A DNA stretch of 64,000 bases, from contig CP060769.1 in the NCBI GenBank assembly GCA_023205875.1, positions 372,001 to 436,000 of the forward strand, written 5' to 3'. Both the position numbers and the translations under genes were made by a program. A model generated the notes under the pieces. It was not told the DNA's origin. It searched no databases and worked only from the letters and a program-made list of their open reading frames with translations. Shown here piece after piece: positions 5,805-10,138 of the stretch (the first letter of the stretch is position 1; the number at the start of each line of letters is the position of its first letter). The DNA is from Chloropicon primus. Lineage: Eukaryota.

Positions 5805-6780
5805 ATCCTCATCCAACATCACCCATTATCCATCGACCTTGGCCTCCTCCTCCTCCTCCTCCTCCTCCTCCTCCTTTCCTCATCCATCATCATCCATCGA
5901 CCTTGGCCCCCTCTTCCTCCTCCTCTTCATCACCACCATCACCCATTATCCATCGACCTTGGCCTCCTCCTCCTCCTCCTCCTCCTCTTCATCACCACCA
6001 TCACCCATCGACCTTGGCCTCCTCCTCCTCATCATCATCATCATCACCACCATCACCCATCGACCTTGGCCTCCTCTTCCTCCGTCTTGGTTTCTCCTCC
6101 TCTTCATCACCACCATCACCCATCGACCTTGGCCTCCTCCTCCTCCTCGTTTCCTCATCCATCGACCTTGGCCTCCTCCTCCTCCTCCTCCTCTTCATCA
6201 CCACCATCACCCATCGACCTTGGCCTCCTCCTCCTCCTCCTCCTCTTCATCACCACCATCACCCATCGACCTTGGCCTCCTCCTCCTCCTCCTCCTCTTC
6301 ATCACCACCATCACCCATCGACCTTGGCCTCCTCCTCCTCCTCCTCGTTTCCTCATCCATCGACCTTGGCCTCCTCCTCCTCCTCCTCATCACCACCATC
6401 ACCCATCGACCTTGGCCTCCTCCTCCTCCTCCTCCTCTTCATCACCACCATCACCCATCGACCTTGGCCTCCTCCTCCTCCTCCTCGTTTCCTCATCCAT
6501 CGACCTTGGCCTCCTCCTCCTCCTCCTCTTCATCACCACCATCACCCATCGACCTTGGCCTCCTCCTCCTCCTCCTCCTCTTCATCACCACCATCACCCA
6601 TCGACCTTGGCCTCCTCCTCCTCCTCCTCGTTTCCTCATCCATCGACCTTGGCCTCCTCCTCCTCCTCCTCCTCTTCATCACCACCATCACCCATCGACC
6701 TTGGCCTCCTCCTCCTCCTCCTCTTCATCACCACCATCACCCATCGACCTTGGCCTCCTCTTCCTCCTCCTCATCATCCG
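5805..6780. repeat. Pyrimidine-rich minisatellite, about 19 units anchored on CATCGACCTTGG(C)(CTC)n
   Basis: Two unit types, ending TTCATCACCACCATCACC (~46-52 bp) or GTTTCCTCATC (~39-42 bp), with variable CTC copy number. Confidence 0.92.
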
Positions 6781-6844
6781 GCTCTTCCTTCTCTTCTTGC
6801 TGCTCTCCTCGACATCAGATCAAAAACAGCACACAGAAAAGTCA

Positions 6845-7098
6845 CGAAAGGACGGTAGGGAAATCACAGTCAATACTGGAAGCACAAAGGCAAGTTCTCC
6901 TTTCCACTGAAAGAGAGAAACACGGGAGAACCGGCCCCTACTTACCTGTTAGTTTTCTGCAAAGGTCGTTTCACCGAGTTTGTAAGTTTCTCGGCAGGGT
7001 AATTCGGCCCTACCACGACCATTCCACCGTACATGAACGAATACTTCCGCCCACGCACGGCAGCCCGTACTAACAAACGTATGTGCAACCCTGAGGAG
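6845..7098 (-). ncRNA. Candidate Fanzor omegaRNA (guide scaffold) immediately downstream of the Fanzor stop codon
   Basis: Nested complementary segments at 6947-6953/7069-7075, 6964-6969/7015-7020, 6993-6999/7008-7014, 6974-6978/6990-6994, 6894-6900/6925-6931 and 6855-6861/6935-6941. The position matches where TnpB/Fanzor omegaRNAs lie. Ends are approximate. Confidence 0.6.
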
Positions 7099-9186
7099 TT
7101 ACACACTTTTTGGTTGACGCAAGTGCTTCAGGAGGACGTTGCGTGCCCCGTTCACATCCCGACCGCACTTGAAGCCACACTTCTGGCACTTGTACACCTC
7201 TGCTCCACCCAGGTTGTCCTTGATGTGTCCGCACCTGCCACAGGTCTTGGAGGTGTACTCCTCCGTCACGATCGCCAGCTCACTGCCGTGCAAGAGCACC
7301 TTGGAAGCCAAGAACGTTCTGAACGCATAGTGCCTCAACGTCAAGAGCGTGCGAGCCGTCTTCTTCCTGATCACTCGGCGTCTCCCGTTGTTGTTCTTCT
7401 TCGCCATGTCTTGGGACTTGAACTCCGGGAGGAGGATTGTGTCGAACCTCCTGCATAGATCGTTGGCTACCTTTTTGTGAAGCTCGTTCGTCAGACCTCG
7501 AAGTTTCTCCATGCAGGCGTATTGCTGTCTCTTCAAGTCGCGGCGGTCGAGGTAAGGGAGCTTCACCTTTGGGTCTTTGCGCTCGGAAATGATCTCATCA
7601 ATCCTCCAGCAGAGGTTGAACAGCCTCGCGAAGCCTCGCTCGCCCGTGGCATACTCCCCGACGCCTTCTTGCGGCGAGTACGACGTCTGAAAGGTCCTGA
7701 CTCCCGGATCCAGGGCGACAACCTTCCGCTTGTTCTCAGGCTTCAGGGGTGGCAGGCGATCCCATGGCGTCGCGATGGGAATGTGCATGTGGAACTGCCC
7801 AAGGCGATTTCTTGTGATCTTCACGGCACCCTCGATCTTGCCCCCGGGGATCTCCTCCGTCAAGTACAGGGGCCCGCCGGCCATCTTCTCCTTGAACACC
7901 TCCAGCTTGGTCCACTTGCGTCGTTTTTTGTGCTTCGTGTCATCCTTGTGCCTCGTTCTCGGTCTTTCGATCGTCTCCACGTTCTTTAAGTCTCTTGCAT
8001 TAATTTCAATGGTCCAAGAGCTCGGTTGCTGACGTTGACGATACTTGAGAACGAAGCGGTGCCCCTTCTCCTCGCCGCGCTCCTTCATCGCTTCCTGCTT
8101 CGCGGTGTTCGAATCCCATGCCTTGATGAGACTTCGCACGGCAGCTTGTCTGATGGCACAGGGGGTTTCCTTCAGCCAAGGATGCTTCTGATTTACAAAG
8201 GCCCCGCTAACGTAGTCCCGGTCCTTGGCCACTTCGGCGCGAAATCGTCTGCCTCCAATTTGGCTCTCGAGTCTCTTCTCTCTGGCCGCGAAAAGCTCTG
8301 CCTCCTGTTTTGTCCATGGCCGTGGAGAGCATTGGATTTCTTTCAGCTCTTTCTCCAGGCCCTCAAAGACCTCAGGGCCTCGAGGTTTGGCCGTCACAAA
8401 TCTGTCCAGCAGGACGGTCCAAACCAGCGGAAAACCCTCCTTCTTGACCGCCTCCAAACACTTGTTGTATGTGAAACGCGCAGCTCCCATCCAGTTGCAA
8501 AGTGTTCTCGCCTGCTCAGGGTTCAAGCGCATCCTAAGCTTCCTCGTCCGCATCACCGTTCGCTCCGACAATAGCTTGGAGGTCTTCAGTTTCTGCTCCC
8601 TCTTCCTTTTGGCGGGCGACTGCAATGTCTCGACGGATACCACAGAATCTTCTGGAAGGTTCAAGCACGACCTCCATCCCGTCTTCGGACACTTTACCTC
8701 TACAAGTTCTCTCTTGATCGATGAGAACCAGGTCTTCTTCACGCTGTCGTCCGCCAAGCCACCCGGCTGCTTCCCTGCTTTCTTCCCCCTCTTGTTCTTC
8801 TTCTTCTTACCCTTCTTCTTGTTCTTCTTCTTGCCCTTCTTGCGAGGCTTCTTGCGAGGCTTGCCTGACGAGCTCGAACTCTCACCCGCAGAGGCGTCCG
8901 CCTCCGGCGGACGCCCCTTCCGCTTCCCCCCCCGCTTCTTGCGAGGCGTGCTCGAACCCTCACCCGCAGAGGCGGGGTCGTCCGCGATAGGAAGCAGGCA
9001 CAACGCGTAGAGCCAGGCTAAACCCTGATTCCAGAACCGACGTAACGGCTCCGTCGTCGGAGACTCCTGCCCCGACTTCGAAGCGCCCTGAGCATGACTC
9101 TCGCCAGAGTGCGACCTCCTTGTGGAACTCGTCGAGCCACTCCCCTGCTTCTCCTTTTTCTTACGGCGCTTCCCTGATCGCGCCAT
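7099..9186 (-). CDS. Fanzor (eukaryotic TnpB homologue, Fanzor2/IS607-like) RNA-guided endonuclease, 695 aa, intronless
   Basis: MRTRKLRMRLNPEQARTLCNWMGAARFTYN (OrfB HTH/WED start), RuvC-I VVALDPGVRTF, DTILLPEF, rearranged RuvC-II VTEEYTSKTC, zinc finger CGRCG...CQKCG and RuvC-III RDVNGARN. The N-terminus is Lys-rich and NLS-like. Confidence 0.93.
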   Translation of the reverse strand: MARSGKRRKKKEKQGSGSTSSTRRSHSGESHAQGASKSGQESPTTEPLRRFWNQGLAWLYALCLLPIADDPASAGEGSSTPRKKRGGKRKGRPPEADASAGESSSSSGKPRKKPRKKGKKKNKKKGKKKKNKRGKKAGKQPGGLADDSVKKTWFSSIKRELVEVKCPKTGWRSCLNLPEDSVVSVETLQSPAKRKREQKLKTSKLLSERTVMRTRKLRMRLNPEQARTLCNWMGAARFTYNKCLEAVKKEGFPLVWTVLLDRFVTAKPRGPEVFEGLEKELKEIQCSPRPWTKQEAELFAAREKRLESQIGGRRFRAEVAKDRDYVSGAFVNQKHPWLKETPCAIRQAAVRSLIKAWDSNTAKQEAMKERGEEKGHRFVLKYRQRQQPSSWTIEINARDLKNVETIERPRTRHKDDTKHKKRRKWTKLEVFKEKMAGGPLYLTEEIPGGKIEGAVKITRNRLGQFHMHIPIATPWDRLPPLKPENKRKVVALDPGVRTFQTSYSPQEGVGEYATGERGFARLFNLCWRIDEIISERKDPKVKLPYLDRRDLKRQQYACMEKLRGLTNELHKKVANDLCRRFDTILLPEFKSQDMAKKNNNGRRRVIRKKTARTLLTLRHYAFRTFLASKVLLHGSELAIVTEEYTSKTCGRCGHIKDNLGGAEVYKCQKCGFKCGRDVNGARNVLLKHLRQPKSV

Positions 9187-9697
9187 GACCGGTAGGGTTT
9201 CACTCGCTGCCCTCCTCGTAACTCCTCGTAACTATAGATTTGCCTTGTCCAGCAAGTGAGAACACGAAAAAAACGCTTAGTGGGTTGTCCTTTGGGTGTG
9301 ACCAAACTGGTATACACTGGAATCCCACCAACAGGGGAAAACCTCCAACAGATCGTCCTATCGTCCCATTGGGTGGCTTATCCAGATTTCAGGATAAGGA
9401 TGAATCGATCCTCGTGGTCGTCAGAGATTCACAACAACCAGAGAGAGATCTTCGAAACCCAAACCCAAAACAAACCCCAGCGACAACGAAAAGGTGAGGG
9501 CAAGGGCGACTGCGAACAAGGGAACGACATCGGCATCGGCATCCTTCCCCTCTCTCCCTTTCGAACGACACCGCTCTCCAACGAAATGGTGGAGAGGACG
9601 CCATTTTATCCATATATCATCATCATCAATAACAACACCATGGACCTGACTGACTCTCTCTTTCTTTCTCTCGATTGTGTTCTTTTCTTTTTTGCAG

Positions 9698-10138
9698 ATG
9701 ATGAAGAGCGCGATGATGAAGAGGAACGTTGCCACGACGATGAAGGCGAGCGGCAACGTGCCAAAGGCCACCTTTGTCAGGAAGGTTGCCCAGACGGCTG
9801 GCATTGCTGCCTCCACCCTTGCTCTGACCTTGAGCGCCAACGCTGCTGAGGTGAAGCTCGGAACCGATTCCGGTGGACTCCAGTTCGTTCCGTCTTCCGT
9901 GACCATCAAGAAGGGAGACTCCGTGACCTGGAAGAACAACGCCGGGTTCCCTCACAACGTCGTCTTCGACGAGGACGAGTGCCCATCCGGAGTCGACGTG
10001 GACAAGCTCTCGAACGAGGACTACTTGAACGCTCCAGGTGAGACCGTCACCAGGACCTTCAATGTCGCCGGGGAGTACAACTACTACTGCGAGCCACACC
10101 AGGGCGCTGGCATGGCCGGAAAGATCATCGTCCAGTAA
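9698..10138 (+). CDS. PETE: Plastocyanin precursor
   Basis: Bipartite transit peptide ending in ANA, then VKLGTDSGGLQFVP, NNAGFPHNVVFDED and YYCEPHQGAGM (Cu ligands). A probable 5'UTR intron at ~9494-9697 ends TTTGCAG directly before the ATG. Confidence 0.97.
   Translation: MMKSAMMKRNVATTMKASGNVPKATFVRKVAQTAGIAASTLALTLSANAAEVKLGTDSGGLQFVPSSVTIKKGDSVTWKNNAGFPHNVVFDEDECPSGVDVDKLSNEDYLNAPGETVTRTFNVAGEYNYYCEPHQGAGMAGKIIVQ

Follow-up and report, generated by a model that had tools for sequence, protein, structure and literature searches.

A candidate spliceosomal donor at the predicted omegaRNA scaffold end of a Fanzor2* nuclease gene in the green alga Chloropicon primus

The 64,000-nt stretch of the Chloropicon primus genome analysed here (GenBank assembly GCA_023205875.1, contig CP060769.1, positions 372,001 to 436,000 of the forward strand; hereafter, the window) carries, on its minus strand, a copy of a multi-copy transposon with an uninterrupted open reading frame (ORF) for a Fanzor2-type RNA-guided nuclease (7099-9186). 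Judged by its sequence, the gene is of a known kind and belongs to a known family, already described by Yoon et al. as Fanzor2*; taken by itself, a gene from such a known protein family is ordinary. The new point, likely and with fair although indirect support, is a spliceosomal splice donor located on the predicted end of the omegaRNA scaffold. As the predicted scaffold ends at the same donor where three RNA assemblies break, the splicing machinery of the cell may attach the guide.

The scaffold end and the splice donor

The following features lie downstream of the nuclease ORF.

6946..7110, minus strand: predicted omegaRNA scaffold, 5' end uncertain; minimum free energy z-score -5.03; the outer helix closes at 6946
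7069..7074, minus strand: predicted 5' strand of the terminal (pseudoknot-type) helix, from alignment and covariation
6948..6953, minus strand: predicted 3' strand of the terminal helix, from compensatory changes and the ApmFz2 register; the scaffold ends two bases on
6940..6946, minus strand: candidate spliceosomal 5' splice donor CAG/GTAAGT, with the junction between 6946 and 6945, at the predicted scaffold-guide boundary
6811..6945, minus strand: unstructured pyrimidine-rich tail, the inferred 5' part of the intron, from the stability z-score (-0.55) and DNA depth

None of 200 shuffled sequences was as stable as the scaffold (7110-6946), in which long perfect hairpins are kept. The tail, 135 nt in the window copy and ~150 nt in full-length copies, contains YAG sites at 6907 and 6876, and the first AG sites past it are at 6808 and 6800. 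A scan of 6700-7400 against Rfam gave three sub-threshold, chance-level matches, with no family and no group I intron among them.

MAFFT aligns a hexamer that lies ~20-25 nt past the stop codon, and both the window sequence and four relatives contain a perfect partner to it, with NG next. The resulting 6-bp helix is maintained despite base changes in all four relatives, and in three of them both strands are changed. Covariation across these five sequences predicts a terminal pairing of the pseudoknot type. In ApmFz2, the pseudoknot pairs positions -4 to 0, and position -2 is in a G:C pair (available part of PMC11832414), and the ISXfa1 guide starts after CGG; in this register, 6946 corresponds to position 0. 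One multi-copy viral family also ends in CAG, with the helix reaching its end. The scaffold is predicted to end at 6946, 135 nt inside the element, with a doubt of 1 nt.

Several observations weigh against this placement. With chance rates of 0.05-0.49 per sequence, the helix test is weak for each individual sequence, and the product, ~2e-4, is taken over related, not independent, sequences, one of which (L081) has four perfect partners. The test left out three of the seven closest loci: L083 and L086, in which no 5' motif was seen by eye, and L087, for which downstream DNA is lacking. No supporting helix was obtained from a second multi-copy family (L128/L145). Furthermore, the helix and NG are followed by T in all four relatives, but by G and then T in the window, so that the register may be off by 1 nt, and a consensus donor in register is present in none of the four. 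A separate search with a 19-nt scaffold-end pattern returned 11 bacterial loci, which were rejected as chance matches, none reaching beyond 26 nt.

The donor, with its exon bases, spans 6948-6940 on the gene strand and fits the consensus perfectly; AGGTAAGT occurs twice in 128 kb (both strands). We examined 4 of 20 sequencing runs, of which X1 is DNA and X4, X6 and X7 are taken as RNA, the latter three representing three studies and two organism codes; loose ends and pieces are reported among those listed (21 of 49 rows and 32 of 416 pieces). The GT-AG joint of the neighbouring plastocyanin gene was found in all three RNA runs and not in the DNA run, where the missing depth over plastocyanin and over the tandem array described below is no evidence, given filtered records and skipped repeats.

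All three RNA assemblies break at the donor. In X4, one contig starts at 6946 (depth 282), and an unspliced branch into the tail (depth 34) shares exactly 30 nt with it, as is typical of a branch point. In X6, one contig starts at 6946 (depth 1888, compared with 105 in the tail), and another has 255 or more foreign bases joined at 6946. In X7, a contig diverges at 6945 and goes on for 46 foreign bases, with a tail depth of 0 at both 6822 and 6925. The unspliced share of depth amounts to ~12% in X4 and ~6% in X6, and in the X1 DNA, the tail keeps 75-83% of the depth at the end of the ORF. The ORF and the scaffold are covered by RNA contigs, and the tail alone drops out. In the available part of the published indel table (see below), both heterozygous insertion alleles of the element contain the donor and the tail, and both have an AG 1-3 nt past their shared end. 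Altogether, we consider splicing at the 6946 donor probable.

The same breaks would appear if a minority of the genomic copies ended at 6946, the ancestral IS607 right end, and dominated expression. IS607 elements do end at this position, the DNA depth of the tail is 17-25% below that of the ORF end, X7 offers a single continuation, and the DNA loose ends are those among the rows listed, so that copies ending at 6946 could exist beyond these rows. However, a quarter of the copies at most would have to yield 88-100% of the RNA in three studies, the perfect GTAAGT would be left unexplained, no loose end at 6946 is found among the six listed for X1, and the tail is present in both published insertion alleles, as far as these are available. 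We regard this explanation as very unlikely.

Other aspects of the data also count against splicing as the source of the breaks, or qualify it. The read evidence consists of assembled contigs with rough depths, which give neither strand nor expression level. The RNA reads speak for the family and are not assignable to the window copy, which differs from them at many sites, and no acceptor could be assigned to the foreign sequences joined at the donor. In X4, the depth is higher at 6822 (80) than at 6925 (34), so that part of the RNA may re-enter the tail at an internal acceptor. Finally, the AG close to the element end was observed in two of two alleles, which could be due to chance (an estimated ~1 in 6).

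The nuclease and its transposon family

The ORF and its motifs are as follows.

7099..9186, minus strand: Fanzor2* ORF, 695 aa, no internal stop; Pfam, PDB and fold matches
7708..7710, minus strand: RuvC-I Asp493 (ALDPG, DPG motif), by motif position and alignment
7426..7428, minus strand: Pro587 at the canonical RuvC-II position (LPEF), by motif position and alignment
7261..7263, minus strand: relocated catalytic Glu642 (VTEEYTSKTC), aligned with the Glu of the matching ApmFz2 motif
7177..7242, minus strand: C4 zinc finger, C649 (7240-7242), C652, C667 (7186-7188) and C670
7156..7158, minus strand: RuvC-III Asp677, after the C4 zinc finger, by motif position and alignment

A disordered basic N-terminus (~residues 1-206) is followed by the HTH/WED-REC region, RuvC and the zinc finger. 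The role of Pro at the canonical RuvC-II position (LPEF) is established knowledge. All 25 aligned proteins have D493, P587, E642, the four Cys and D677. Translation and this alignment bear out the original prediction of an uninterrupted 695-aa ORF with three RuvC acidic residues and a C4 finger. The Glu that it had placed in VTEEYTSKTC at ~7258-7263 can now be narrowed down to E642, separated by six residues from the first zinc-finger Cys, because the adjacent E643 is replaced by A or R in 5 of the 25 proteins.

The Fanzor2-like type proposed there is upheld by profile and structure searches. The TnpB/Cas12f C-terminal domain (E 4e-18) and HTH_OrfB_IS605 (E 4e-07) were detected above the Pfam cut-offs, and two NCBIfam models scored below their own cut-offs (guided_TnpB, 89 against 100; IS607_TnpB, 52 against 350). 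In a PDB sequence search, ApmFz2, a mimivirus Fanzor2, was the top match (E 1e-19), and SpuFz1 was not among the 18 matches at E<=1. An AlphaFold2 model (mean predicted local distance difference test score 66, mostly below 50 for residues 1-206; predicted template modelling score 0.63) retrieved ApmFz2 first with Foldseek (E 1e-15), followed by TnpB and Cas12f, with SpuFz1 at rank 43. The ORF is nearer to IS607 TnpB and Fanzor2 than to Fanzor1 in both sequence and fold.

The Fanzor definition of Yoon et al. includes the RuvC-I DPG motif (available part of bioRxiv 10.1101/2023.08.09.552727). The ORF has this motif, a Glu shifted six residues before the zinc finger, and a C4 finger followed by the RuvC-III Asp; it lies in a eukaryotic genome and is followed by a predicted structured omegaRNA. 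Taken with the searches above, these features classify it as a Fanzor2-type RuvC nuclease whose rearranged triad is intact, encoded in an algal nuclear genome. The green-algal nuclear setting, also part of the original prediction, agrees with eukaryotic neighbours, a spliced plastocyanin intron and host-like G+C content at third codon positions (GC3). In contrast, its suggestion that the protein is probably an uncharacterised family member no longer stands, given that the family has been published as Fanzor2* and that Table S3 of Yoon et al. (PMC10711439, as far as available) includes proteins 97% identical to the window ORF. No published activity test of the Chloropicon primus family was found in the literature.

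The top homologues are annotated as 'putative IS605 transposase [Chloropicon primus]', and the query falls within a 46-member cluster. Of 22 family proteins fetched, the query included, 21 keep all catalytic motifs; the core identity is 96-99% in 20 of the 21 other proteins and 95% in the remaining, truncated one. Lemieux et al. (2019; available part of PMC6731263) reported 25 'IS605 transposase' loci with RNA-seq depths of 0.7-88. According to the accessible text of Yoon et al. (2023; PMC10711439), the family was captured by a cut-and-paste transposon that is not of the IS607 type and has a 5-nt target site duplication (TSD), degenerate terminal inverted repeats (TIRs) and no known autonomous partner. 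Among the 225 rows seen of the indel table in Supplementary Data 8 of PMC6731263, with cells cut at 400 characters, two heterozygous insertions of the element (2707 and 2664 bp) are present, which indicates recent movement. With ~25 near-identical, partly heterozygous copies, the transposon family is young and multi-copy.

In these two alleles (Chr3:123680 and Chr6:369520), 24-25 unique bases precede the shared right end; a long duplication, carried flank or an offset of the variant caller could account for them, and they do not fit a plain 5-nt TSD. The available rows of the same table also contain an unrelated 2531-bp heterozygous insertion at Chr1:974796. Family members differ in the number of N-terminal repeat units (695, 722-723 or 746 aa), and the window copy has a 78-nt internal repeat in the N-terminal extension (8860-8896 and 8938-8974). 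Gene models P0004, P0005 and P0127 have internal deletions and P0123 is truncated, whereas models P0135, P0005 and P0146 fuse family members to downstream host exons, one fusion partner being a SET-domain gene that is annotated separately elsewhere as P0136. A diverged internal-deletion derivative, marked by variants at 8709, 8711 and 8734, was observed in X4 and X6, where ~8667 is joined directly to a scaffold-end helix, with GG and a GTAAGT donor after it. Its DNA depth is 149, near single-copy, and its RNA depths of 363 (X4) and 2331 (X6) are among the deepest of the element contigs. By self-BLAST, the window holds neither a second copy nor a ghost element.

The element extends beyond the ORF on both sides, and a second, decayed frame overlaps the gene.

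9187..9437, minus strand: left part of the element with the presumed promoter, from DNA depth; the left end lies between 9408 and 9437
8375..9130, minus strand: putative decayed IS607 TnpA (serine recombinase) in a second frame, interrupted by stops, from tblastn

The X1 depth is in the thousands across bins from ~6811 to 9424, compared with ~200 in the left flank, a ~28-fold ratio that is not a copy number. For the window copy, no TSD and no TIR pair can be assigned with confidence. A 6-nt direct repeat (6806-6811 and 9409-9414) lies near the element ends, but its reading as a TSD, with 6811 as the right end, was dropped given that the published alleles share 15 more bases. These 15 bases beyond 6811, shared by the two published alleles (as far as available) and by loose ends in the runs, are lost here (1 of 15 matches), so that the right terminus of the window copy is truncated. 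An inverted match to the family right end, which is itself missing here, occurs at 9437-9420 (12 of 18, p ~0.02). With its right terminus truncated, the window copy is probably immobile. As no read or contig in the four runs bridges either of its junctions, this copy is a local assembly without independent confirmation. Copy pairs among the relatives (L061/L062, L065/L070, L075-L077) were considered as a source of element ends and rejected, since they look like orthologous loci with indels.

The TnpA relic was detected in tblastn searches with the TnpA of L081 (E 9e-11 at 8773-8375) and that of L085 (E 2e-05 against the element, with a weak piece at 9130-8951). In L085, the frame overlapping the Fanzor gene is an intact IS607 transposase that passes NF033518 (165.9 bits, cut-off 110), and partial transposases are present in L081 and L082. 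In all three loci (L081 1303-1872, L082 ~430-900, L085 208-1011), two frames, one for TnpA and one for the Fanzor N-terminal extension, overlap for several hundred bases, so the extension is overprinted sequence. TnpA-like sequence lies upstream in 96 of the 157 loci scored, and a FastTree phylogeny (117 of 164 dereplicated RuvC regions, midpoint-rooted, without Fanzor1) places the query in a 24-tip clade (support 0.964) that includes five TnpA-bearing loci. The putative overprinted relic thus supports a history of capture, although part of the TnpA similarity can stem from the shared descent of the Fanzor frame. Instead of the intact TnpA of a canonical IS607 element, there is only a stop-interrupted relic, and instead of a right end that coincides with the scaffold end, multi-copy DNA continues past 6946. 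By eye, a 10-nt tandem repeat is visible at 9218-9236, with an inverted copy at the stop codon (7094-7103); these could be relics of repeats bound by TnpA, but chance alone should produce such a 10-mer match within 2.6 kb.

L081, L082 and L085, metagenomic IS607-Fanzor2 loci with 42-55% protein identity to the query, share with it the terminal helix and a TnpA overprinted on the N-terminus. They differ in that TnpA is intact (L085) or less decayed and that the scaffold end bears no consensus donor. Another relative, L083 (1615-3303; 51% identical), lies in a giant-virus-like gene neighbourhood; it gave no match to TnpA, and its scaffold is apparently truncated. Two metagenomic proteins of 921-947 aa, P0029 and P0091, combine XPG/FEN-type domains (PF00752, PF00867) with a TnpB C-terminal domain, which shares 52-53% identity with the query across 25-29% of the searched region. 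Viral relatives are at most 26-52% identical in the best segment, no close viral donor was found among them, and the right-end pattern had no matches in viral contigs.

Guide formation and comparison with known systems

Tentatively, and at slightly below an even chance, we propose that the tail is spliced out, that the scaffold is thereby joined to the flank, and that the spliced RNA is the working guide for the vacant site. An IS607 element encoding TnpA and Fanzor2 would have been captured by a cut-and-paste transposon, with subsequent decay of TnpA. After the capture, ~150 nt of the new right end would have lain between the scaffold and the flank, a length close to the 152-bp mean intron length of the species. 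Removal of this spacer by splicing, from the donor of the element to an acceptor at or beyond the insertion point, would restore the scaffold-to-flank junction, with the flank as the guide. By analogy with work on TnpB and IS607, the ribonucleoprotein (RNP) would then cut the homologous or sister chromosome of the diploid alga at its vacant site, and repair from the occupied allele would restore or spread the element.

The published precedents, as far as the sources are available, are that guides of characterised TnpBs and Fanzors consist of non-conserved bases directly after the scaffold (review PMC13565253) and that RNP cutting of the vacant site has been demonstrated for bacterial IS605 and IS607 TnpB (PMC10690162). 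The target-adjacent motifs (TAMs) measured among ApmFz2, MmeFz2 and NlovFz2 are GGG, TAG and CCG, again in the material available. Self-avoidance is a weak point of the proposed mechanism: with a 3-nt TAM consisting of the acceptor AG, the occupied and vacant alleles would both carry the motif, which would not distinguish them. The predicted guides of the window copy have no exact second site in the window.

Splicing at 6946 could also be real without making a guide, serving instead to yield Fanzor mRNA or to rescue downstream host transcripts. The minor unspliced RNA would then be the working omegaRNA, with the first 15-17 nt of the tail as a fixed guide against tail-bearing, Fanzor-less relatives of the transposon, and splicing would compete with guide production as in IStrons. 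The unspliced branch in X4 and X6, the conservation of the tail start in both published alleles (available part), the gene models that fuse family members to downstream host exons (P0135, P0005, P0146) and the precedent of antagonism in IStrons (available part of PMC10690162) all fit this scheme. However, the window contains no target of such a guide except the element itself, no Fanzor-less tail element was seen, and the sole derivative seen keeps the scaffold end; furthermore, guides of characterised Fanzors come from the non-conserved flank (available part of PMC13565253). We consider a fixed guide unlikely.

Even less probable, in our assessment, is that the nuclease is a passenger whose ORF stayed intact through a recent amplification with no functional RNP, the donor being a gene-trap site. 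With copies 96-99% identical, intactness needs no selection, some models have internal deletions (P0004, P0005, P0127) or a truncation (P0123), and the last 15 nt of the family right end are lost in the window copy. Against this, the Fanzor frame has remained open for 695 codons on the very DNA in which the TnpA frame has decayed, the scaffold retains its long perfect hairpins and terminal helix, and the family is transcribed.

Compared with the published Fanzor2* of Chloropicon primus (available part of PMC10711439), the window copy has the same protein (96-99% identity), multi-copy state and lack of an autonomous transposase, but it is missing the last 15 nt of the right end and has no clear TIR/TSD pair. 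The main text of this article, as far as available, makes no mention of splicing, introns or overlap, and neither the scaffold end, nor the donor on it, nor the overprinted TnpA relic was found in the accessible text, although the figures may mark the RNA boundary. With ApmFz2 (PDB 9b0l), MmeFz2 and NlovFz2, as described in the sources available, the window protein shares the relocated Glu, the basic disordered N-terminus and a terminal pseudoknot beside the guide. ApmFz2, however, resides in an IS607 element with TnpA and uses the co-linear flank as its guide, whereas here 135-150 nt of transposon end intervene.

IStrons (IS607 and IS605 elements with group I introns; available part of PMC10690162) resemble this element in having a splice site that coincides in part with the omegaRNA pseudoknot, where scaffold and guide meet. 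That site is a self-splicing 3' splice site, and splicing severs the scaffold from the guide; here, a spliceosomal 5' site would leave the scaffold exonic and splicing would join a new guide to it. Introners (available part of PMC9860276) are likewise non-autonomous DNA transposons that supply one splice site and take the other from the insertion site, but they are short and are spliced out almost whole, whereas here the tail alone would be intronic and the element encodes a nuclease.

The literature found on Chloropicon with Fanzor or TnpB consists of Yoon et al., Lemieux et al. and a passing mention in PMC12633428, each as far as available. In the accessible parts of Saito (PMC10432273), Jiang (PMC10530073) and a 2026 review (PMC13565253), no mention of Chloropicon was found, and introns are described only within Fanzor genes. 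A search that lay mostly outside the subscription literature brought up no earlier description of a spliceosomal donor at the guide junction of a Fanzor.

The broader question is how a captured Fanzor2, in which the guide abuts the terminal pseudoknot, keeps a flank-derived guide across a transposon end. Such captures were proposed by Yoon et al. as a path to Fanzor1 (available part of PMC10711439). A spliceosomal donor on the scaffold end would, if true, be a concrete answer. It would be one route by which an IS607 Fanzor2 survives transfer into unrelated eukaryotic transposons, and guide choice would come under splicing control in a diploid alga, where homing could be observed at heterozygous insertions and the choice of acceptor could re-target the nuclease. 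In its boldest form, which we hold with still more reserve than the proposed mechanism itself, this would be the first RNA-guided nuclease with a guide assembled by the spliceosome, the right end having turned into an intron after capture and each copy being self-programmed against its vacant allele. An assay of the Fanzor2* enzyme requires the scaffold boundary, which now has a fixed predicted position; the 300 nt downstream of the ORF would set the intron start, rather than the flank, in the guide position.

Surroundings of the window copy

The neighbours in the window include plastocyanin, a TRIP13-like ATPase, a RING ligase and a short-chain dehydrogenase/reductase. GC3 is 0.72 in the core of the Fanzor2* ORF and 0.74-0.83 in four neighbours. 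The plastocyanin gene (9430-10138, plus strand), with a 5' intron of ~205 nt, is arranged head to head with the Fanzor gene and starts within tens of bases of the left end of the element.

On the other side, a tandem array (5855-6772) repeats a 52-bp unit ~18 times, with a higher-order period of 143 bp. Its interpretation as a CRISPR-like store of guides was rejected: this is single-locus low-complexity DNA outside the element. The array ends 38 bp from the truncated right end of the element. At the left side, an X6 RNA contig joins the region upstream of plastocyanin, at 9423, to 255 or more bases that are absent from the window; the X6 strain may have rearranged or deleted the upstream region at the element.

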